From a virus (taxonomy: Duplodnaviria; Heunggongvirae; Uroviricota; Caudoviricetes): DNA of 37,226 nucleotides. Where the stretch lies: the IMG/VR virus record IMGVR_UViG_2529292736_000004. One strand, written 5' to 3'. A program made the translations under genes and the position numbers. Of this stretch, positions 8,956 to 20,699 are shown piece after piece (within the stretch, counting starts at the first letter, position 1; each line of letters opens with the position of its first letter). A model generated the notes under the pieces. That model was given only the letters and a program-made list of their open reading frames with translations, was not told the origin of the DNA and did no database searches.

Positions 8956-9128
8956 GACGACAGCGGCGAAGTTTCACCGACATCATCTGCGAAAACTGCA
9001 AATACCTTCCAACGAAACGCTCCAGAAATAAACGCAAGCCAATCCCAAAAGAATCTGACGTAAAAACCTTCAACTACACGGCTCACCTGTGGGATATCCG
9101 GTGGCTAAGACATCGTGCGAGGAAATGA
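8952..9128 (+). CDS. ninE: NinE-like protein, 58 aa
   Basis: [58 protein letters not shown] resembles lambda/DLP12 NinE; start overlaps the MTase stop. Confidence 0.75.
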
Positions 9129-9472
9129 CAATGGATTATTCACAGTTAAGTGATTTTGAAATTAACCGAATGGTAGGAGACATAATTTTTAAAGGCCTTT
9201 GGGCATGTAAGCCTGAAACATCAGGGAATAACACCAACAAATGGTATTACGGAAATGCCGATGTAAGTCTTGAGCCATTAAACCCTTTGCCTGACTACTG
9301 CAATGATCCGAGCGCTTCATGGCCGATTATTGAGAAATACAGGATTTCTATCTTAGACCAGTTAACTGAATGGTGTGTGGATGCAAAAGGCGTAAGCCCA
9401 ATATTTGATACCAGACCTCTCCGCGCCGCCATGATTGTCTTTCTCCTGATGCAGGAGGCCAATAATGCTTAG
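9125..9472 (+). CDS. Hypothetical nin-region protein, about 115 aa
   Basis: [34 protein letters not shown]..., translationally coupled to ninE. Family not recognised. Confidence 0.6.
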
Positions 9473-9659
9473 CCCATCTCAATCCCTTCAATACCTGAAA
9501 GGAAGCATAGAGCGGGCTTCAATGTGCACAGAGTGGATTCTATCTAGGTTTAGCGCATACAGAAGATTGCCGGTAAAGGGCATGCCAAGCAAGTCGATGC
9601 TGCATATGCAAAAGAATGCGCGCTGGAAGGTATGGCGAGAACACAGGTTATCTGGCTGA
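9465..9659 (+). CDS. NinF-like small protein (only the N-terminal ~19 aa match lambda NinF); integrity uncertain
   Basis: [19 protein letters not shown]... A second coding-looking frame (…[29 protein letters not shown], ending at 9682 and overlapping the rusA start) suggests a frameshifted or recombinant gene here. Confidence 0.4.
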
Positions 9660-9678
9660 AAGAGGGGGTTATTAAGGC

Positions 9679-10041
9679 GTGAATACCTACAGCATCACAT
9701 TACCCTGGCCTCCGAGCAATAATCGCTATTACCGCCATAATCGCGGGCGCACGCACGTCAGCGCAGAGGGGCAGGCATACCGCGATAACGTCGCCCGAAT
9801 CATTAAAAACGCAATGCTGGATATCGGCCTGGCTATGCCTGTGAAAATCCGCATTGAGTGCCACATGCCGGATCGCCGTCGCCGTGACCTGGATAATCTG
9901 CAAAAAGCCGCTTTTGACGCACTCACTAAAGCAGGTTTCTGGCTGGATGATGCTCAGGTCGTTGATTACCGCGTTGTGAAGATGCCTGTTACCAAAGGTG
10001 GGAGGCTGGAACTGACCATCACCGAAATGGAGAATGAATGA
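9679..10041 (+). CDS. rusA: RusA Holliday-junction resolvase, 120 aa
   Basis: [82 protein letters not shown]... matches DLP12 RusA; GTG start. Confidence 0.9.
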
Positions 10042-10178
10042 TGTTTGAGTTTAATATGGCAGAACTTCTTCGCCACCGCTGGGGGCGTCTGCGCTTATAT
10101 CGTTTCCCCGGTTCTGTTTTGACCGATTACCGAATACTGAAGAATTACGCCAAAACCCTGACAGGAGCAGGAGTATGA
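10038..10178 (+). CDS. ylcG: YlcG-like small protein, 46 aa
   Basis: Hand translation [46 protein letters not shown]; below the track size cut-off; same position as DLP12 ylcG. Confidence 0.7.
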
Positions 10179-10263
10179 AGTCAGAGATAACAATCAACTA
10201 ATACTGTTTTGTTGATTTTTGCTTGTAATTGGCGTTCTGGTCTGATTTTTGTGGAGTAAGTTG

Positions 10264-10647
10264 ATGCGTGATATTCAGATGGTTCTTGAGCGTTGGGGAG
10301 CGTGGGCGGCTAATAATCATGAAGATGTGACCTGGTCGTCCATTGCCGCCGGTTTTAAGGGATTAATTACTTCAAAAGTAAAATCTCGCCCGCAATGTTG
10401 TGACGATGACGCGATGATTATTTGCGGGTGCATGGCCCGTCTGAAAAAGAACAACAGCGATTTGCACGATTTATTAGTAGATTATTATGTAGTCGGTATG
10501 ACATTCATGTCACTGGCAGGTAAGCATTGCTGCTCTGATGGTTATATCGGGAAAAGGTTACAGAAGGCTGAGGGCATAATTGAAGGGATGTTAATGGCAT
10601 TAGATATCCGGTTAGAGATGGATATCGTTGTTAATAACTCTAATTAA
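10264..10647 (+). CDS. quuD: Q-family late-gene antiterminator (QuuD-like), 127 aa
   Basis: [62 protein letters not shown]... matches DLP12 QuuD; Cys-rich zinc-binding region; ATG at 10264. Confidence 0.85.
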
Positions 10648-10661
10648 TATGCCAATTGTTT

Positions 10662-10698
10662 ACTAAAAATTATTAAAAATGGGGCGTTGCAACGCCCC
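10662..10698 (-). terminator. Palindromic GC hairpin (ggggcgttgcaacgcccc) with a T-rich tail on the minus strand; candidate nmpC terminator
   Basis: Perfect 6-bp stem with a 6-nt loop. On the minus strand it is followed by atttttaataattttt. It lies about 140 nt past the nmpC stop, so the assignment is tentative. Confidence 0.4.
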
Positions 10699-10835
10699 CA
10701 AAAATAAAGGGTAATATATAACAGAAGATTTATATAGTTAGAAGCAAGGTTGTGCTCCTAAAGGAAGTGGCTTGAGGGAGCCACTTATATGTTGGGGAGG
10801 CAAAGCCTCCCGCAACATATCTTTTAGTAATCAAA

Positions 10836-11918
10836 TTAGAACTGGTAAACCATACCTACAGCAACGATATCATCGGTAGCAACGCCAGATGCTTTCGTGA
10901 AATCGCTCTTATCAATCAGGTTGATTTTGTAATCAACAAAAGTGGACATATTTTTGTTGAAGTAATAGGTTGCACCTACATCAATATATTCAACCAGGTC
11001 CTGATCACCCCACGCACCCAAGTCTTTTCCTTTAGATTGCAGGTAAGCAACGGACGGACGCAGACCGAAGTCGAACTGATATTGTGCAACTACTTCGAAG
11101 TTTTGTGCTTTGTTGGCAATATGGTTATTACCAAAAACAGTCATGTTCTGGGTTTCAGAATAGGTGGTAGCCAGATAGATGTTGTTCGCATCATATTTCA
11201 GACCAGCTGCCCATACTTCAGCATTTTGACCAGATGCATTCAGGCTGTTGTTACCGTAGATAACCTGATTATTAGTGCGGTCAGATTTAGCATAGGTTGC
11301 ACCTACACCGAATCCTTCATACTCATAAGTAGTGGAGAAACCGAAACCATCACCATTAGCTTCAGTTACGTCAGTGCGGTCATTTTTACCCTGATACTGA
11401 GCAGCAAAGTTCAGACCATCAACCAGACCAAAGAAGTCGTTGTTACGATAAGTTGCAACACCAGTGGTGCGACCAGTCATGAACACATCTGTTTGGGTCC
11501 AGGTATCGCCACCGAATTCTGGCAGAACGTCAGTCCACGCACCGATGTCGTATGCTACACCGTAGTTACGGCCGTAATCGATTGAGCCGTAGTCACCGAA
11601 TTTCAGGCCTGCAAATGCAAGACGGGTTTTGTCTTTGGAGGAACCTTGAGATTCAGCGCGGTTGCCTTTGAATTCATATTCCCACTGACCGAAACCAGTC
11701 AGTTGATCGTTGATTTGGGTTTCACCTTTGAAGCCAAGACGGGCATAAGTAGTATCACCATCATCTGCATCATTAGAGGAGAAGTAGTGCTTAGCATTAA
11801 CTTTCCCGTACAGATCCAGCTTGTTACTGTCTTTATTATAAATTTCAGCTGCCTGAGCAGACATCGCCATCAGTACTGATGCAGCTACAGCAGAAATTGC
11901 CACTGTTAATTTTTTCAT
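10836..11918 (-). CDS. nmpC: Outer-membrane porin, OmpC/OmpF family (NmpC-like), apparently intact, 360 aa
   Basis: Signal peptide [23 protein letters not shown] followed by a classic porin sequence ([17 protein letters not shown]...GMVYQF). Antisense to the phage late operon between Q and the holin. Confidence 0.9.
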
Positions 11919-12347
11919 CGTGAGCCCTTTTTTTTGAACTATTATTAAAAAATGATGTCACTGCGCGATAAATATTCATCTAATCAATGTGATTATTTCA
12001 AGATGTAAGTTTTGGTTTCTCGTTTGATTTGTGAAGTAGATCTCTATTTTTATCTGAACTTTTTTCTATCGAATCCTATTCATAGCTCTTGTCTGAATAA
12101 AAATAAATCTACTAGCCAATTTATATTAACGGCTGTTATTTATAAGTGCTCTATAATTTGAAGGTTCAATTTAAATCGGCTAAAAATAACACTGGAAATT
12201 ATTTGTTGGTTATTTGTTGAGATTTGCTTATGTATTTGTAGTGGTGTTTTCAATACTCGGTAGCATTCTCGCAAATATCATTTAGTGGTTTACGTACGTA
12301 AAAAATTGGTTATGCTGTTAAGAGTGGTTACTTCGTCACACAGCTTA

Positions 12348-12380
12348 AACCCGCCGTCGAGCGGGTTTTTCCATTTTTTG
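12348..12380 (+). terminator. Intrinsic terminator on the plus strand upstream of the holin; candidate tR' of the late operon
   Basis: aaacccgc-cgtcga-gcgggttt followed by ttccatttttt. A possible promoter (TTTACG...TATGCT, about 12288..12320) lies roughly 60 nt upstream; that promoter assignment is inference only. Confidence 0.55.
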
Positions 12381-12468
12381 AGTCTCGATATTAGCTGATA
12401 ACCCAATACCTGAGTTATTCACTGACTGAACCGCCCCGGGTTTCCTGGAGAGTGTTTTATCTGTGAAC

Positions 12469-13359
12469 TCAGGCTGCCAGATCATCGTTTCCGATGGAAG
12501 CATAATAAGCTTTTTCTGCTTCTGCCGGTGGGATATGGCCCAGCCTTTCCAGCAATCGTCGATTGTTATACCAGTCCACCCACGTGAGTGTGGCCAGTTC
12601 CACTTCTGTCCGGTTTTTCCAGCTCTTACGGTGTATTACCTCCGCTTTGTAAAGGCCATTGATGCTCTCCGCCATCGCGTTGTCATACGAGTCACCAGTA
12701 CTTCCTGTTGATGCCAGTAATCCGGCTTCCTTAAGCCGCTGTGTGTAGGCCAGCGATACATACTGAGAACCTTTATCACTGTGATGGACTGTGCCGGACG
12801 GTCGACGGGCCCATAACGCCTGCTCCAGAGCATCCAGCACGAATGTCGTTTCCATAGACGATGAGACCCGCCACCCCACGATGTATCCGGCAAACACATC
12901 AATGATGAACGCCACATAGACGACCCCCTGCCATGTGCTGACGTAAGTAAAATCAGCCACCCACAACTGGTCAGGACGTTCTGCCACAAACTGACGGTTT
13001 ACGCGGTCGCCTGCGGCAACGGCTTTCCGGCTGACGGTAGTGCGGACCTTTTTACCCCGGAGAACACCGGCAAGTCCCATAACCGCCATGAGGCGCGCCA
13101 CTGTACATCTGGCTACCCTGATTCCTTCCCGTAACAACTGACGCCAGACTTTACGCACACCGTATACCTGATGATTCCCATCGTATACGCGCAGTATCTC
13201 TTTCTTCAGCCAGTCATCGCGCTGCGCACGGGCACTGCGTTTATCAGGATGATGTCGCTGTTGCTGACAGTGGTAATACGTTGACGGGGCAATATGTAGT
13301 TCACTGCATACCGGTCCGACCCCGTACAGCTTACGCAGCTTATCCAGCAGTGGCATCAC
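12469..13359 (-). CDS. IS629 OrfB (DDE integrase/transposase catalytic subunit), 296 aa
   Basis: IS3-family catalytic-domain sequence (…[48 protein letters not shown]…[11 protein letters not shown]…). Confidence 0.85.
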
Positions 13360-13682
13360 TTTTTCCAGAGGCGGTCGAACTCCGCCTTCGCAAAATAAGC
13401 GGAAGCCTGGCGAAGGATATCGTTACTGCGGCGCAGTTCACGATTTTCACGTTCCAGCTCTTTCAGACGCTGACGTTCAGCGGTGGTGAGCCCGCCATCA
13501 CCGCCTCCGGTATCCCGCTCATGCTGGCGTACCCAGACACGCAGAGTCTCCGGTGTACAGTCAATCTTTGGGGCAATGGAACAAATTGCCGCCCACTGTG
13601 AGTCATATTCGCCCTGACTTTCCAGAACCATACGAATCGCCCTCTGACGGACTTCGGGGGAAAAACGAGTATTTTTAGTCAT
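13356..13682 (-). CDS. IS629 OrfA (HTH transposase subunit), 108 aa
   Basis: [40 protein letters not shown]...; overlaps orfB by 4 nt, typical of IS3-family -1 frameshift elements. Confidence 0.85.
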
Positions 13683-13804
13683 CCTGTTTACCTCTTTCTC
13701 AGGGAGTTTAGTCTCCAGGATTCCCGGGGCGGTTCAGACTCCGAGTCTGTTACGTTTCGTAGTATTCCCTCAATTTACACCCGCTTTGTCTGCGAGGTGG
13801 GGTT

Positions 13805-14020
13805 ATGAAATCCATGGATAAGTTAACAACGGGTGTCGCCTATGGCACCTCAGCAGGTAGTGCCGGTTACTGGTTTTTACAGCTGCTCGATAAAGTCACG
13901 CCCTCACAGTGGGCAGCAATAGGTGTGCAGGGTAGCCTGGTATTTGGCCTGCTGACGTACCTGACAAACCTTTATTTCAAGATTAAAGAAGATAAGCGCA
14001 AGGCTGCGAGAGGTGAATAA
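13805..14020 (+). CDS. essD: Holin (EssD/lambdoid class), 71 aa
   Basis: [71 protein letters not shown]: small protein with transmembrane segments and a charged C-terminus, directly upstream of the lysozyme. Confidence 0.8.
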
Positions 14021-14517
14021 TGCCTCCATCATTACGAAAAGCCGTTGCTGCTGCTATTGGTGGCGGAGCAATTGCTATAGCATCAGTGTTAATCACTGGC
14101 CCAAGTGGTAACGATGGTCTGGAAGGTGTCAGCTACATACCATACAAAGATATTGTTGGTGTATGGACTGTATGTCACGGGCATACAGGAAAAGACATCA
14201 TGCTCGGTAAAACGTATACCAAAGCAGAATGCAAAGCCCTCCTGAATAAAGACCTTGCCACGGTCGCCAGACAAATTAACCCGTACATCAAAGTCGATAT
14301 ACCGGAAACAATGCGCGGCGCTCTTTACTCATTCGTTTACAACGTGGGTGCTGGCAATTTCAGAACATCGACGCTTCTTCGCAAAATAAACCAGGGCGAT
14401 ATCAAAGGCGCATGTGATCAGCTACGTCGCTGGACATATGCTGGCGGTAAGCAATGGAAAGGTCTCATGACTCGTCGTGAGATTGAGCGTGAAATCTGTT
14501 TGTGGGGTCAGCAATGA
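14020..14517 (+). CDS. rrrD: Endolysin (T4-type lysozyme fold) with an N-terminal hydrophobic signal-anchor-like segment, 165 aa
   Basis: Hydrophobic N-terminus ([20 protein letters not shown]) then a lysozyme-like sequence (…[19 protein letters not shown]…); start overlaps the holin stop. The gene symbol is by analogy with DLP12. Confidence 0.8.
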
Positions 14518-14972
14518 ACAGAGTAACCGCGATTATCTCCGCTCTGGTTATCTGCATCATCGTCGGCCTGTCATGGGCTGTTAATCATTACCGTGATAAC
14601 GCCATTACCTACAAAGCCCAGCGCGACAAAAATGCCAGAGAACTGAAGCTGGCGAACGTGGCAATTACTGACATGCAGATGCGTCAGCGTGATGTTGCTG
14701 CGCTCGATGCAAGATACACAAAGGAGCTTGCTGATGCTAACGCGACTATCGAAAGTCTCCGTGCTGATGTTTCTGCTGGGCGTAAGCGCCTGCAAGTCGC
14801 CGCCACCTGTGCAAAGTCAACGACCGGAGCCAGCGGCATGGGCGATGGAGAAAGCCCAGGACTTACAGCAGATGCTGAACTCAATTATTACCGTCTCCGA
14901 AGTGGAATCGACAAGATAACCGCGCAGGTTAACTACCTGCAGGAATACATCAGGACGCAATGCCTGAAATAA
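14514..14972 (+). CDS. rzpD: Rz-type i-spanin, 152 aa
   Basis: N-terminal transmembrane segment ([20 protein letters not shown]) and coiled-coil-like remainder; ATG overlaps the lysozyme stop. Confidence 0.8.
14767..14919 (+). CDS. rzoD: Rz1-type o-spanin lipoprotein, embedded in the +1 frame of Rz, about 50 aa
   Basis: [25 protein letters not shown]...: lipobox VSAC and a proline-rich mature region, wholly inside Rz. Confidence 0.7.
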
Positions 14973-15003
14973 TTTTTTTGCAAATCACAAAGTCCATTTA
15001 ATG

Positions 15004-15026
15004 AGCCTCGCGATGCGGGGCTTTTT
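15004..15026 (+). terminator. Intrinsic terminator after the lysis cassette
   Basis: gcctcgc-gat-gcggggc stem (one mismatch) followed by ttttt. Confidence 0.5.
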
Positions 15027-15033
15027 GCAATAA

Positions 15034-15058
15034 ATGCGTACCGCAACGCATGTTTTTT
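15034..15058 (+). terminator. Second intrinsic terminator after the lysis cassette
   Basis: atgcgt-accgca-acgcat hairpin followed by gtttttt. Confidence 0.55.
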
Positions 15059-15173
15059 ACACCGAACCTGCCCCTTTGGAATGGGCCTTTGAGGATACCA
15101 GTTAGTGCTGGCGAGCCTCGGTGGGCTGGTTTCCTGTGCGGCAAAGGTTCATTTCAAAGAGTAGGTACACGCT

Positions 15174-15671
15174 ATGAAATCATTAACCCTCTTCAATCAA
15201 CCAATTCGTATCGGTGAAGATGGCATGATCTGCCTCACTGATATGTGGAAAGCCAGTGGTAAAAGTGAATCTGAATCGCCTTACCACTACCTGCGAAACA
15301 AGCAGACCAAAGAGTTCTTAGCCGAGCTGGAGAAAAACCACGAATCTGTGGTTTTTACTGAGCGCGGTGTACACGGTGGAACATATGGCGGGAAGTTTGT
15401 TGCTTACGATTATGCGGCTTGGTTAAACCCCGGGTTCAAGTACGCGGCCTATAAAGTCCTCGATGACTACTTCACCGGAGAACTTCAGCATCGCAACAGC
15501 TTAAGTGCGCAGCTCAACATGAAATGTCATGAGTTTGACCAGAAGAAAGACATGGCGAGCTTCTGCGGACAAGGGCTGGCAGCATGGCGCTATACGAAGC
15601 CAGTGTTGGTCGCTGAGATTAACTCCCTGGCTAACCAGCTGCAGATTACGATCCCCGGGCTTCCGGGATGA
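15174..15671 (+). CDS. KilA-N-like domain protein, 165 aa
   Basis: N-terminal segment (FNQPIRIGEDGMICLTDMWKASGK...NKQTKEFLAEL) resembles the KilA-N fold; assignment is by motif resemblance only. Confidence 0.5.
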   Translation: MKSLTLFNQPIRIGEDGMICLTDMWKASGKSESESPYHYLRNKQTKEFLAELEKNHESVVFTERGVHGGTYGGKFVAYDYAAWLNPGFKYAAYKVLDDYFTGELQHRNSLSAQLNMKCHEFDQKKDMASFCGQGLAAWRYTKPVLVAEINSLANQLQITIPGLPG

Positions 15672-15931
15672 GTGATCGTGTTATTGAATGCGCCTCCAGA
15701 GCGGGGCGCGACTTCTCAGAGTTCATGAAAGGCGAGAAGGGCATGATGGAAGCATTGGCCTCGGTGGATGAGTTTGGCGAGCAGCTGCGCCTCAACGGCT
15801 GTGTCAATCATCACTTTGTTAGCTACATGATGCGGAACTCGATCATGCAGGCATTCATAGACATGGCAAAAGCCGAGAGGAAAGAAGAGCGCCGGCGTAA
15901 GCGAGCGGAAGCAAAAGCAAAAGTGAAGTAG
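15668..15931 (+). CDS. Hypothetical protein, 87 aa, lysine/arginine-rich C-terminus
   Basis: ORF translationally coupled to the upstream gene (ATGA overlap). Confidence 0.5.
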   Translation: MSDRVIECASRAGRDFSEFMKGEKGMMEALASVDEFGEQLRLNGCVNHHFVSYMMRNSIMQAFIDMAKAERKEERRRKRAEAKAKVK

Positions 15932-16155
15932 CCATTACAAAGCCCATTTACGGGTGGGCTTGATAATGAAACCGGAATTTATTCTGGGCCACCAGTTAAC
16001 GGCAGTACCACGAAACAACCCAAGCCAGTAAGTGGGGAAATAACACCGGCAGCCACTGAAAGATGAACCTCCTGCCTTATGGCAAAAAAGATTCTTTGTG
16101 GTGGCGGACTGATGGAAAGACATCCTAATTTCAGCCAAACATTGAAGGAGTTGTT

Positions 16156-17379: not shown

Positions 17380-17600
17380 TATCATTTTGCGGGTCCTTTC
17401 CGGCGATCCGACAGGTTACGGGGCGGCGACCTCGCGGGTTTTCGCTATTTATGAAAATTTTCCGGTTTAAGGCGTTTCCGTTCTTCTTCGTCATAACTTA
17501 ATGTTTTTATTTAAAATACCCTCTGAAAAGAAAGGAAACGACAGGTGCTGAAAGCGAGCTTTTTGGCCTCTGTCGTTTCCTTTCTCTGTTTTTGTCCGTG
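17380..17600 (+). other. cos: Lambda cos site (cosQ-cosN-cosB); 12-nt cohesive end GGGCGGCGACCT at 17421..17432
   Basis: …CGACAGGTTACG|GGGCGGCGACCTCGCGGGTTTTCGCTATTTATGAAAATTTTCCGGTTTAAGGCG… matches the lambda right-end/left-end junction; cosB runs up to the IS66 insertion point at 17608. Confidence 0.9.
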
Positions 17601-17608
17601 GAATGAAC

Positions 17609-17986
17609 GTAAGCGGCTCGCCAGAACCGTATTGATATTTACTGAGAAGTCAGATCAACTTTCCAGGGCAACAGATCGCGTACCCGGTTTGCCGGCCAGT
17701 CCTGGATATGCTCAATAACGTAACGCAGCCATTTTTCTGGCTCTACATTGTTCAGACGGCATGTGCCGATCAGCGAGTACAACACCGCCGCATGTTCGCC
17801 ACCGCTGTCGGAACCCGCGAAGAGCCAGTTTTCCGGCCTACCGCCACTCCCCGTAAGGCGTTCTCTGCGATGTTGTTGTCGATTTCCACCCAGCCATTAC
17901 TGCAGTACACGTTCAGTGCATCCCACTGTTTCAGCAGGTATGCGAACGCTTTTGCCGTATCTGAGTGACGCGACAGTGTTTTCATC
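17609..17986 (-). repeat. Partial (378-bp) copy of the IS66-family element end (terminal repeat plus tnpC 3' end), in tandem with the full copy
   Basis: 17609..17986 aligns with 17987..18364 with about five differences (for example TTTTCC versus TTTTTCC, and two changes within cagtgcatccc versus cagggcctccc); both copies start GTAAGCGGCTCGCC. Confidence 0.85.
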
Positions 17987-18016
17987 GTAAGCGGCTCGCC
18001 AGAACCGTATTGATAT

Positions 18017-19588
18017 TTACTGAGAAGTCAGATCAACTTTCCAGGGCAACAGATCGCGTACCCGGTTTGCCGGCCAGTCCTGGATATGCTCAATAACGTA
18101 ACGCAGCCATTTTTCTGGCTCTACATTGTTCAGACGGCATGTGCCGATCAGCGAGTACAACACCGCCGCATGTTCGCCACCGCTGTCGGAACCCGCGAAG
18201 AGCCAGTTTTTCCGGCCTACGGCCACTCCCCGTAAGGCGTTCTCTGCGATGTTGTTGTCGATTTCCACCCAGCCATTACTGCAGTACACGTTCAGGGCCT
18301 CCCACTGTTTCAGCAGGTATGCGAACGCTTTTGCCGTATCCGAGTGACGCGACAGTGTTTTCATCTGTTCCTGTATCCAGTCATACAGTGACTGCATCAG
18401 TGGAGCCGCTCTGGCTTTTCTTGCTGCCAGACGCTGTTCTGCTGAACATCCCCAGACTTCTGCCTCGATGACATACAGTTCACCGATACGCTGCAGGGCT
18501 TCCGTGGTGATGTCGGTTGGCACTCTTGCATGCACATCGTGGATTTTTCTCCGGGCATGGGCCATACACGCGGCTTCCGTTATTCTGCCGGATTCGTATA
18601 ACGCCCGGTAACCACCGTAAGCATCTGCCTGAAGCACACCGCTGTAACCGGCCAGGTGATTCTGTGGATGGATACCTTTCCGGTCCGGGCTGTACGCGAA
18701 CCAGACCGCCGGGGGCATCTGTGAACCGGCGTTACGGTCATCACGGACATAGACCCACAGCCGGGCAGTTCTTGTTTTACCACTGCCCGGCTCCTGGACC
18801 GGAACGGGGATATCATCCGCATGGACTTTACCGGGCATCAGCACATACTGGCGCAGCACGTCATACAGCGGCTCCAGCAGTTCAGCAACGGCACCGGTCC
18901 AGCGCCCCAGCGTGGCGCGGCTCAGTTCCACGCCCTGACGAAGGTATATTTCTGACTGGCGGTATAACGGCAGATGGTCTGCATACTTCCCGGTGACGAT
19001 ATGAGCCAGAAGCCCCGCTCCGGCATAACTGCGTGCAATGGGTTTTGAAGGTACTGGTGCCTGCACGATATGGTCGCACCGGCAACAGGCCAGTTTCGGA
19101 CGTTGTGTTTCGATAACCTTAAAAGCGCTGCTGATAAGCTCCAGTTGCTCTGACACATCACACCCCAGAGGACTGAGGTCACCACCACAGGCCGGGCAGC
19201 ATTCCTCTTCCGGCCGGATGACCCGGGTTTCACGGGGAAGTGAGGCCGGTAACGGCTTACGGGCTGAAGACTGGCGCAGGGCGGATGGCAGTACCGGGTC
19301 ATATTGCTCACCCAGCGTTTCCGCCATTTCTTCCTGAAGTGCGCTGATTCGCTCCTGGGCTTCCTGTATCTGCCGTTCGGTTTTAGCGCGAAGTTTTTCT
19401 GAGCTTTTACCGAACTGCATACGTTGCAGTTTCGCAACCAGCGCCTTCAGCCGGTTGATTTCGGAAGCATAAGCCGCCACCCGCTGTGAGAGCAGGCGGT
19501 TGTATTCAGCCATCTGGCGTATGGTGTCCTGTTGCGTCTGCAACAGTGCCCGCAGGCGGGCGTTCTCATGAGCAAGTGAGGTGTCCAT
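18017..19588 (-). CDS. tnpC: IS66-family transposase TnpC (orf3), 523 aa
   Basis: N-terminal coiled-coil/leucine-zipper region, CxxC zinc-finger-like motifs (CPACGG...CCRCDH) and a DDE-type catalytic region typical of IS66 transposases. Confidence 0.85.
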
Positions 19589-19607
19589 ATCCTCACTTTA
19601 CAACGGG

Positions 19608-19955
19608 TTATATGCGGATGCCAGCGCGTTCCGTTCGTTTCGGGTGCTTCCAGTTGATACCTTCAAGAAGCATAGATAACTGAGCCGGAGTAAGGTGCAC
19701 CTTGCCGTCACGGGTAACCGGCCAGACGAAGCGGCCCCGCTCCAGGCGTTTGGTGAAGAGGCACAGTCCGTCACTGTCAGCCCACAACACTTTTATCTGG
19801 TCACCCCGGCGTCCGCGGAAGATGAACAGATGCCCGGAGAACGGGTCATCCTTCAGGACGTTCTGAACTTTTGATGCCAGGCCGTTAAAACCATTTCGCA
19901 TGTCGGTGATACCGGCAACCAGCCAGATACGCGAACCGGCAGGGAGAGATATCAT
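19608..19955 (-). CDS. tnpB: IS66-family TnpB (orf2), 115 aa
   Basis: MISLPAGSRIWLVAGITDMRNGFNGLASKVQNVLKDDPFSGHLFIFRGRRGDQIKVLWADSDGLCLFTKRLERGRFVWP: canonical IS66 Orf2. Confidence 0.85.
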   Translation of the reverse strand: MISLPAGSRIWLVAGITDMRNGFNGLASKVQNVLKDDPFSGHLFIFRGRRGDQIKVLWADSDGLCLFTKRLERGRFVWPVTRDGKVHLTPAQLSMLLEGINWKHPKRTERAGIRI

Positions 19956-20605
19956 TAGTGGCTGCTCCCTTTCATTTCGCGGATAAGTGTCTGTAATAAC
20001 GCCGGTGTCAGTTCACCTTTCAGCCTGAGAGTTCCGGCCGGCAGAACCAGCTCACAGCACAGACTGTCGGGCGGTGTATTTATCTGTTCAGGTATCTGCA
20101 CTGGTGCCGGGATTTTATTATCCGGCTCCGGAGTTAACGTCACGGGAAGTAGCGATGTTTCATGTTCGCCGGTCGGCTGCAGGCCGCCGTTACGCCAGAG
20201 ATGCCGCCAGTTAAAGAGCAGGTTATCGTTGATTCCGTTCTCACGAGCTATTTGTGCGACACAGGCACCGGGTAAAAGAGTTTGCTGAACAAGCCTCCAT
20301 TTAAACTCCGGTGAAAATCGGTTCCGGCGGATTTTCTCTGTTTTCACAGGCTGAGTCACTGTCGGGGCTGAAGGGTATCGCCCCGGGAACAGAGCCCGGG
20401 CCAGTTGCACGCAGGAATATTCTCCGGAAAGAGGCCAGTCAGTGAATACCTGGTGAAATCGCCTCACCAGAGAAAAAATGGCGGTTTTGCTGATACCGGT
20501 CTGCGCAGAAATGCGCGGGTACGACAGTGACTCGTCAAATCTCAGTTGTAGCACACGCAGGATCAATTCCGGATTGTCTGCCAGTACCGCTTTTCGTGCA
20601 TTCAT
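19955..20605 (-). CDS. tnpA: IS66-family TnpA (orf1), 216 aa with an N-terminal HTH extension
   Basis: Contains ...RRNRFSPEFKWRLVQQTLLPGACVAQIARENGINDNLLFNWR..., typical of IS66 orfA. Confidence 0.75.
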   Translation of the reverse strand: MNARKAVLADNPELILRVLQLRFDESLSYPRISAQTGISKTAIFSLVRRFHQVFTDWPLSGEYSCVQLARALFPGRYPSAPTVTQPVKTEKIRRNRFSPEFKWRLVQQTLLPGACVAQIARENGINDNLLFNWRHLWRNGGLQPTGEHETSLLPVTLTPEPDNKIPAPVQIPEQINTPPDSLCCELVLPAGTLRLKGELTPALLQTLIREMKGSSH

Positions 20606-20699
20606 CTTAAATGTCCCTTTACTGCGAAAATGGACATTAGTATCGGAAACAGGAAAGGGAGGCGAAAGACGGTTTAAATGAGACGGTTACGAATGAACA

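Follow-up and report, generated by a model that had tools for sequence, protein, structure and literature searches.

Late transcription in lambda is controlled by the pR'-6S RNA-tR' unit, in which a constitutive promoter located directly after Q gives a short terminated leader of 194 nt and Q-dependent read-through carries transcription into S, R and Rz. The locus described here, located in the window (the whole 37,226-nt stretch of viral DNA analyzed, IMG/VR record IMGVR_UViG_2529292736_000004), appears to follow the same logic with a different regulator: its Q belongs to PF06530, which is unrelated to the lambda Q family PF03589, and there is no sequence similarity. Another counterpart is provided by Stx phages with a Q933-type regulator (933W, Sakai Sp5 and Sp15). 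These phages carry a homologous -35 element, spacer, -10 element, +1 and first hairpin (84% mean column identity) together with a related Q (78%), and their promoter is presumed, as in the window, to be constitutive with Q-dependent read-through. In the Stx phages the unit is found ~44 nt after Q and the leader, which extends as far as a second terminator at +258, yields the StxS sRNA, whereas in the window Q and the unit are separated by a porin gene and the lysis genes come immediately after the unit. The match between StxS-L and the window is limited to +1..+47, at 12323-12370; the 74-nt 3' fragment of StxS (+174..+258), which contains the regulatory seed and the second terminator, has no match in the window. 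The pR'-hairpin unit is present in 363 phage records and the Q933/QuuD family in 401, and the unit accompanies these Q genes.

The gene order of the window is that of the DLP12 'qsr' module of K-12 (quuD-nmpC-essD-rrrD-rzpD), phage 434 and PA-2, which share near-identical intergenic DNA including the promoter-hairpin unit. This DLP12-type module is a frequent target of insertion sequences, with IS5 in nmpC of 434 (and in that of K-12), IS1 inside pR' of one relative locus (L037) and, in another (L073), a porin gene that carries an IS629-like element. Compared with these insertions, the IS in the window differs in type and position and leaves both the genes and the promoter uninterrupted. Prophages commonly carry IS629 insertions, which serve as strain markers. 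Sakai Sp5 contains an IS629 copy (NC_002695.2, 1270503-1271812) that is also antisense within the Q-driven late operon and upstream of the lysis genes, but that copy interrupts ECs_1207, between stx2B and S, whereas the IS in the window lies in non-coding leader DNA.

In the window, the Q gene (10264..10647, plus strand, with an alternative TTG start at 10249) encodes a late antiterminator of the QuuD type (PF06530 at 4e-53). The protein has ~78% amino-acid identity to 933W Q, its relatives in RefSeq are named quuD, and it is a distant relative of the Q21 structures 6p18 and 6jnx (E = 7e-7), for which a nozzle mechanism has been described (10.1101/651190). Next to Q is an OmpC/NmpC/Lc-type porin gene, a moron, on the minus strand at 10836..11918 (Porin_1 at 3e-153), in the position occupied by lc in PA-2 and by nmpC in 434. 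A porin gene is present at every locus with this Q whose contig reaches past Q. The distance from the Q stop at 10647 to the -35 element at 12289 is 1641 bp, including the 1083-bp porin gene and its flanks, and the cassette is not immediately downstream of Q either in the window or in any relative with this Q allele whose contig reaches that far. The plus-strand lysis genes begin with an S21-type, EssD-like holin/antiholin gene (13805..14020; PF04971 at 3.5e-34), the first late gene past the IS, and continue with an endolysin gene (14020..14517; Phage_lysozyme domain) and an Rz i-spanin gene (14502..14972; Phage_lysis domain). Elsewhere in the same prophage, an IS66-family insertion lies 9 nt before Nu1 and the O gene is split by an apparent frameshift at ~6444-6564; with O frameshifted, the prophage, if defective, may be unable to express Q at all.

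The insertion itself is an IS629-group element of 1310 bp on the minus strand (12427..13736), with IRR at 12427-12451 and IRL at 13712-13736. These termini are imperfect 25-nt inverted repeats (TGAACC...GGTTCA); the repeat tool lists 26-nt arms with 92% complementarity because one flanking base pairs by chance. Both the length and the imperfect repeats ending in 5'-TG...CA-3' are those of IS629, a member of the IS3 family (~1310 bp). The element is bounded by direct GAC repeats at 12424-12426 on the left and 13737-13739 on the right, and relatives have a single GAC at the empty site. The minus-strand orfA (13356..13682; Pfam HTH_Tnp_1 at 4e-12) ends in ...TGG AAA AAG TGA, which overlaps the GTG of orfB at AAAAAGTGA. 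The orfB gene, also on the minus strand (12469..13359; Pfam HTH_21 and rve), encodes the DDE transposase domain and is joined to orfA by a predicted programmed -1 frameshift. A frameshift-stimulating ALIL pseudoknot is located at 13285..13401 on the minus strand and matches the full-length Rfam model RF01497 (116 bits, E = 1.8e-30); an Rfam scan of positions 9000-16000 gave no match besides ALIL. Both IS ORFs are antisense to the holin gene. The element thus shares with IS629/IS1203/IS3411 of the IS3 family its length of 1310 bp, the TGAACCGCCCCGG... termini, the orfA/orfB frameshift, the ALIL pseudoknot, the 3-bp duplication and the preference for prophages.

Copies that are 100% identical to this IS are found in several E. 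coli genomes. Aligned with the Sakai copy, which is annotated as IS1203 / IS629 transposase and has the same length, it is 95.04% identical over 1310 bp with no gaps, a value that, judged by sequence identity, places it at the edge of the isoform range (at least ~95% for IS629). The 5.0% difference suggests another IS629 sub-type and fits the 4-5% by which IS629 sub-types diverge from each other (PMC3271280). IS629 target duplications of 3-4 bp and the occurrence of the element mostly in prophages have been described in the same study (PMC3271280). A preliminary description of this DNA had called the element a complete IS629 of 1310 bp with intact inverted repeats and a 3-bp GAC duplication, antisense to the late operon and located between the hairpin and the holin gene. 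These statements are confirmed to the base, with 46 nt separating the hairpin from the IS and 68 nt separating the IS from the holin ATG at 13805.

The sequence that results when position 12426 is joined to 13740 occurs without interruption in 2339 E. coli genomes and 36 phage records, with identities reaching 99.7%. The empty site is contiguous in phages 434, PA-2 and mEp332, and the exact target (GAGTTATTCACTGAC directly followed by TCCGAGTCTGTTACG) is contiguous, with a single GAC, in 73 of the 80 IMG/VR loci that have an identical Q gene. The comparison with uninterrupted relatives that had been proposed as a check shows that removing the IS and one GAC restores a site common to more than 2300 E. 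coli genomes, so the insertion is not a chance pattern. The exact junction of IS and flank has 0 matches in GTDB species-representative genomes and in IMG/VR. Likewise, an insertion at this site is absent from 5426 complete E. coli genomes, among which the best matches have an IS elsewhere in the module; the best flank match among complete E. coli RefSeq genomes is 99.3%. The insertion is an ordinary IS event in a non-coding leader, and every one of its components is already known.

The candidate pR' upstream of the insertion occupies 12289..12316 on the plus strand, with the -35 element TTTACG at 12289-12294, a 16-nt spacer and the -10 element TATGCT at 12311-12316, and its -35 element begins 58 nt before the hairpin. 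Because it matches the consensus at only 8 of 12 positions, it is not listed by a generic promoter scan. It aligns position for position with TTTACG-16-TATCAT of Sakai Sp5 and 933W, and it is identical in 75 of the 80 IMG/VR relatives. For the Sp5 pR' transcript, a start mapped by dRNA-seq, an RNase E site at +173 and a 3' end at +258 have been published (PMC7547250). The mapped Sp5 start, NC_002695.1 1,266,203, corresponds to position 1046 of locus L085, and this position was reproduced on L085 from the GU/AUU cleavage site at +173 and the terminator at +258. Its homologue in the window is the inferred plus-strand start at 12323, 7 nt past the -10 element. The assignment of 12289..12323 as a putative QuuD-type late promoter is thus supported by homology with the mapped Stx-phage pR'.

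The -35/spacer region contains a palindrome of 10 bp, TACGTACGTA at 12291-12300 on the plus strand, whose sequence changes along with the Q allele and which is a candidate Q-binding element. Where relatives have a Q with 51% identity, the unit differs solely in its -35/spacer and the initial transcribed leader is conserved, as expected of a Q-specific binding site. Q21 uses direct TGAGCA repeats, and repeats of this type are absent from the aligned promoter sequences; no convincing -10-like hexamer for a sigma-dependent pause could be assigned in the early transcribed region of the window. Two other readings of the DNA around the porin gene were rejected. The 188-bp spacer between Q and the porin gene (10648..10835), the canonical place for a late promoter, has no similarity to the post-Q sequence of 933W or ev058, and its three hairpins, one of which is called by the scan, are better read as minus-strand porin terminators. 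A CRP site annotated in the PA-2 GenBank record (equivalent to window positions 12323-12343) was discarded as the main function of that segment, which is conserved after Q in porin-less Stx phages where the TCACA half-site is lost.

The leader hairpin and U-tract that form the candidate tR' were located by a terminator scan at 12347..12380 on the plus strand, and consist of AAACCCGC-CGTCGA-GCGGGTTT followed by TTCCATTTTTT. This hairpin lies at ~+25..+58 of the inferred transcript and is the sole terminator-like site between the inferred start and S. Its stem has 8 bp, including 5 G-C pairs, and precedes a U-run in which the U-tract is interrupted (UUUUUCCAUUUUUU); the predicted fold has an energy of -12 kcal/mol (z = -2.2), and 5 of 200 shuffled sequences fold as well. 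Conservation of the stem extends to Stx phages, PPyecE_EH1910 and SfIV; among the 72 relatives in which the hairpin is readable, 25 have a C·U or C·A mismatch in the stem. The Sp5 homologue of the hairpin, which has a 7-U tract, occupies +24..+52, but the 3' end published from Term-seq is at +258, so some of the transcription, at least, continues past that hairpin. The preliminary description had combined a promoter-like sequence and a strong terminator into a short pR'-tR' unit. The promoter holds up as a homologue of the mapped 933W/Sp5 late promoter and the hairpin and U-tract do have the canonical shape, but the strength of the terminator is doubtful given the read-through of the Sp5 homologue and the mismatches in relatives.

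The prophage is lambda-like and has a DLP12/434/PA-2-type module, which comprises a QuuD-type Q, a reverse porin gene, a probable Q-cognate late promoter with a short hairpin leader and S21-type lysis genes. An intact IS629-group element transposed in antisense orientation into the 111 nt of non-coding DNA that separate the leader hairpin from the holin gene, duplicating GAC. This event left all coding sequences intact, together with the promoter, the hairpin, the putative Q-loading region and the ribosome-binding site of the holin gene; in phage 434, the annotated holin ribosome-binding sites are no more than 11 nt from the start codon, a good distance downstream of where the IS inserted. Through the IS, the leader grows from 169 to 1482 nt. 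Upon induction, Q would load at pR' and the terminator-resistant polymerase would traverse the IS, with late expression little affected. In the lysogen, Q-less polymerase leaking past the hairpin would meet 1.3 kb of untranslated, C-rich antisense RNA and a Rho stop would be more likely; any effect of the IS should therefore lower basal lysis-gene expression. A neutral insertion downstream of a homologous pR'/hairpin unit, read through by Q-modified polymerase, is the likely explanation of the locus as a whole. The effect of the IS on phage late-gene expression is probably small, and the insertion is most plausibly one among several events in the prophage that are neutral or reflect decay.

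As such the finding matters little, the late control module being of the well-known DLP12/434/PA-2 type. More useful than the insertion are its by-products: a homology-placed QuuD pR' at 12289..12323, which lies past the porin gene at a distance of ~355 nt from the published essDp promoter; a palindrome in that promoter whose variation follows the Q allele, a candidate Q-binding site that can be tested; and a conserved terminator-like hairpin at ~+25 that is seemingly read through in Sp5. All three are independent of the IS.

Other effects of the IS were weighed against a neutral insertion. The preliminary description had suggested that the element could be polar or could add outward promoters and terminators. 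Neither suggestion is supported. A scan of the plus strand returned no consensus sigma-70 promoter in the IS or beyond it, and its hairpin/T-run matches there were limited to two weak ones (12436-12448 and 13735-13749). Hybrid promoters created by the IS at either junction were also considered, and none was convincing by eye or by scan. Strong polarity would uncouple the lysis and morphogenesis genes from pR' and lock the prophage in place, a domestication by insertion. Consistent with such a block are the 1.3 kb of antisense RNA that the IS adds, which is untranslated and has stretches rich in C and poor in G (C/G of 1.23 on the IS plus strand, with 78-nt windows that have 27-30 C versus 12-16 G), the two weak hairpin/T-run sites and the further lesions of the prophage in O and before Nu1. 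However, the insertion is downstream of the Q-loading site and contains no strong plus-strand terminator, and Q-modified RNA polymerase reportedly suppresses polarity and is resistant to intrinsic as well as Rho-dependent terminators for more than 20 kb, a result attributed to Forbes and Herskowitz in 1982. Moreover, wild-type Sp5, whose Q is 78% identical, forms plaques and lysogenizes (PMC5155283) despite its antisense IS629/IS1203 between stx2B and the lysis genes, a precedent that involves a different IS629 sub-type at a different operon position. The terminator resistance of Q-modified polymerase and the infectious Sp5 together make polarity very improbable. That the IS has been selected as a 'polarity plug', in whose untranslated antisense RNA Rho stops Q-less read-through past a leaky hairpin and silences harmful basal holin and endolysin expression while the element is transparent to Q-modified polymerase, is quite improbable.

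Two further alternatives concern the leader rather than the IS. According to one, the hairpin is no functional tR' but either a partial terminator or a leader structure conserved for another role, for instance in pausing or Q loading, and basal read-through into S is normal in this phage family. This agrees with the extension of the Sp5 transcript past the homologous hairpin, with the mismatched stems and broken U-tract noted above and with the reported low-level expression of the DLP12 lysis genes in K-12 (PMC7918800). Yet it is rather unlikely, because the hairpin has the stem and U-run of a canonical intrinsic terminator, the 933W GenBank record annotates its homologue as a putative tR', phages of the window type have no second terminator before S, and RNAs of ~50 nt are easily lost from standard RNA-seq and Term-seq libraries. 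The other alternative holds that the Q-responsive late promoter is the RpoE-type essDp, for which Rueggeberg et al. are said to have reported RpoE- and Q-dependence in DLP12 in 2015, and that 12289..12380 is only a leader element and terminator of a longer transcript. This sigma-E-type promoter and its +1 were placed at 11935..11967 on the plus strand by reconstruction from published primer coordinates: the DLP12 construct is described as -121..+650 (PMC7918800), and its forward primer Pdlp12Fw maps to 11846-11865, which puts the +1 at ~11967, ~355 nt upstream of the inferred pR' start. The sequence at this position, TGAACTA-N16-GTCAC, does contain a GAACT-N16-TCAC motif. Against this alternative, Stx phages have nothing downstream of Q that corresponds to 11919..12280 but do have a counterpart of 12289..12380, which coincides with the mapped Sp5 start, and it is the -35/spacer of the latter unit to which change is confined in relatives with the 51% identical Q. 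A late promoter at essDp in place of pR' is accordingly quite unlikely. The two promoters could coexist, and the IS lies downstream of both either way.

The window is a lambda-like prophage whose gene order is N, sieB, cI, O, P, ninB, dam, ninX, rusA and Q, followed by a reverse-oriented porin gene, an IS629 element, S, R, Rz, genes for a KilA-N and a DUF1398 protein, cos, and then Nu1, A and the genes for portal, major capsid, tape measure and other tail proteins. Q (10264..10647; PF06530) is distantly related to the solved Q21 structure (E 7e-7), has close RefSeq relatives named QuuD and shares ~78% protein identity with Q of the Stx phage 933W. The Q-porin-S order is that of DLP12, 434 and PA-2 and is found in every relative with the window's Q allele whose contig reaches beyond Q.

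The IS629-group element occupies exactly 1310 bp on the minus strand (12427..13736) and is bounded by imperfect 25-nt terminal inverted repeats (TGAACCGCCCCGGG...; 12427-12451 and 13712-13736) and by GAC direct repeats (12424-12426 and 13737-13739). It encodes orfA (13682..13356, minus strand; HTH_Tnp_1) and orfB (13359..12469, minus strand; HTH_21 and rve); across their overlap, the ALIL frameshift pseudoknot model RF01497 is matched over its whole length (116 bits). The element starts 46 nt beyond a leader hairpin (12347..12380), and 68 nt separate its other end from the start codon (ATG, 13805) of an S21-type holin (PF04971). The preliminary description of a complete element with inverted repeats, a 3-bp duplication and this spacing holds down to the single base. 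The element is 100% identical to copies found in several E. coli genomes, and the Sakai Sp5 copy, annotated IS1203/IS629, has equal length and 95.0% identity with no gaps, which agrees with the 4-5% difference reported between IS629 sub-types (PMC3271280).

Comparison with the uninterrupted locus, as the preliminary description had suggested, used an empty site reconstructed in silico by removing IS629 and one GAC from the window (888 bp). Among complete E. coli genomes, 2339 carry this sequence unbroken, with identities reaching 99.7%, as do phages PhiR26_1, 434, mEp332, Kati and PA-2. Among the 80 IMG/VR loci encoding an identical Q protein, the target GAGTTATTCACTGAC/TCCGAGTCTGTTACG is contiguous in 73, and no locus carries an IS at this point. 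No second case of this insertion point was found in complete E. coli genomes, GTDB species representatives or IMG/VR. The insertion is a genuine, strain-specific event; all components are already known and the insertion point alone is new.

The 188-bp spacer between Q and the porin gene, the canonical place for pR', was rejected as the late promoter site because it has no similarity to the 933W sequence after Q and because the three hairpins in it make better sense as terminators of the porin gene. The segment at 12285..12380, in contrast, aligns with the post-Q segment of 933W and of Sp5, a Shiga-toxin prophage of E. coli O157:H7 Sakai. Across this alignment the -35 element TTTACG (12289-12294) is unchanged, the 16-nt spacer holds CGTAAAAA, the -10 element is TATGCT (12311-12316) in the window versus TATCAT in Sp5, and TAAGAGTGGTTAC is invariant; the shared hairpin AACCCGCCG...GCGGGTTTTT comes next. 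For Sp5 PR', a dRNA-seq start, an RNase E cut at +173 in GU/AUU and a 3' end at +258 were reported (Sy et al., PMC7547250). These three numbers fit the Sakai sequence only if +1 is the A 7 nt past TATCAT (position 1046 of the extracted Sp5 locus, L085), which places GU/AUU at 1217-1221 and the second terminator T-run at ~1303; the homologous window base is 12323. The promoter-hairpin unit starts ~44 nt past the Q stop in Stx phages and is present in 363 phage records, compared with 401 records with the Q family; it travels with the QuuD/Q933-type Q. Homology to the mapped Sp5 promoter, linkage with this Q family and a -35/spacer region that varies with the Q allele argue for accepting 12285..12380 as the pR'-tR' unit, as the promoter-like sequence before the hairpin had been read, with the porin gene inserted between Q and its promoter.

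A competing claim places the promoter of the lysis cassette ~355 nt further upstream, at the DLP12 essDp, whose +1 is reconstructed from published primers at ~11967. This promoter is said to be RpoE-dependent, and a sigma-E-like motif (TGAACTA-N16-GTCAC, 11935..11967), 49 nt upstream of the porin ATG and on the opposite strand, coincides with the reconstructed +1. The mapped Sp5 start nevertheless supports the promoter at 12289..12323, and IS629 is downstream of both candidates. In Shigella phage SfIV (L089 1..1106), too, the conserved leader-hairpin unit directly follows a reverse-oriented gene, and the holin lies ~140 nt downstream of the unit, so this placement of a reverse 'moron' ahead of the late promoter may be a recurrent one. 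Two mosaic loci (L081 and L082, ~7083..7200) carry Q, porin, pR' and hairpin and then a Stx-phage-type leader replacing the S21 holin, with the recombination junction directly 3' of the hairpin.

The -35/spacer region of pR' also contains a 9-10-bp palindrome (window 12291..12300, L085 1014..1023, L088 ~695..703, and SfIV), which reads TACGTACGTA with QuuD, TACGATCGTA with Q933 and GCGGTCCGC with a 51%-identical Q. Phages with the latter Q are still ~96% identical from +1 to the hairpin, whereas their -35/spacer is altered. Such variation with the Q allele is expected of an allele-specific Q-binding site between -35 and -10, and the palindrome is a candidate Q-binding element of this family. 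The Q21 site has the same position but consists of direct TGAGCA repeats.

The leader hairpin and its U-tract (-12 kcal/mol, z = -2.2) look canonical and form the sole terminator-like site from the inferred start to S, but the label of a strong terminator is doubtful. The homologous Sp5 hairpin (L085 1069..1096) lies at +24..+52 and has the better U-tract, yet the Sp5 transcript is reported to end at +258, so some polymerase gets past it, although RNAs of ~50 nt may have escaped that study. In the window the U-tract is interrupted (UUUUUCCAUUUUUU), and a stem mismatch occurs in 25 of the 72 relatives whose hairpin is readable, which weakens the label further. The intrinsic-terminator-like hairpin of the Stx-phage PR' transcript is kept across the family despite the +258 end; it may serve as a partial terminator, as a pause or as an aid to Q loading, a point that PMC7547250 does not explain. 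The StxS regulatory part of Sp5 (+174..+258) is missing from the window.

With IS629 the leader measures 1482 nt instead of 169 nt, and the element leaves intact the promoter, the hairpin, all coding sequences and the holin ribosome-binding sites, which in 434 are annotated ≤11 nt from the start codon. The preliminary description had raised polarity and IS-borne outward promoters or terminators. A plus-strand scan within and after the element found no consensus promoter and just two weak hairpin/T-run matches (12436-12448 and 13735-13749). The antisense RNA across IS629 is C-rich (C/G = 1.23; windows of 27-30 C versus 12-16 G) and probably untranslated, which would make unmodified polymerase prone to Rho-dependent termination; polymerase crossing without Q would be liable to stop. 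Q-modified polymerase reportedly withstands intrinsic and Rho-dependent terminators and suppresses polarity (Forbes and Herskowitz 1982), and would be expected to read through. The nozzle mechanism of Q21 (10.1101/651190) also speaks for this resistance. Sp5, with a 78%-identical Q and a homologous pR', offers a close natural precedent for such read-through: it carries a 1310-bp antisense IS629/IS1203 between stx2B and the lysis genes, and the wild type formed plaques and lysogenised K-12 after mitomycin C (PMC5155283). Polarity is thus unlikely, and IS629 is probably all but neutral for late expression driven by Q; any effect would be a reduction, in the lysogen, of the basal read-through that reaches the lysis genes. 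Overall, the original observation is confirmed and its interpretation partly supported.

Other lesions occur in the prophage. The replication initiator gene O (6034..6932) is divided over two frames that overlap, 6034..6564 (phrog_277 positions 1-166) and 6444..6932 (157-317), so that O is a frameshifted pseudogene unless the sequence itself contains an error. The late operon contains a second IS, an IS66-family element (region 17609..20690; TnpC, TnpB and an HTH protein, with minus-strand genes at 18017..19588, 19608..19955 and 19955..20605), between a lambda-like cosB hairpin (17529-17585) and Nu1. An 8-bp GAATGAAC duplication lies on either side of it. The element is preceded by a ~380-bp fragment whose first 224 nt repeat the IS end, and it stops 9 nt before the Nu1 ATG (20700), where it may impair Nu1 translation. 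Given the split O and this insertion, the prophage may be defective for causes unrelated to IS629. IS insertions in the late control module are common among relatives: phage 434 has IS5 in nmpC, and the porin gene of relative L073 holds an IS629-like element. In an IMG/VR relative (L037 6144..6921), IS1 with a ~8-9 bp duplication (AAAATTGG) separates the -35 and -10 elements of pR' and, judging from its position, should inactivate the promoter.
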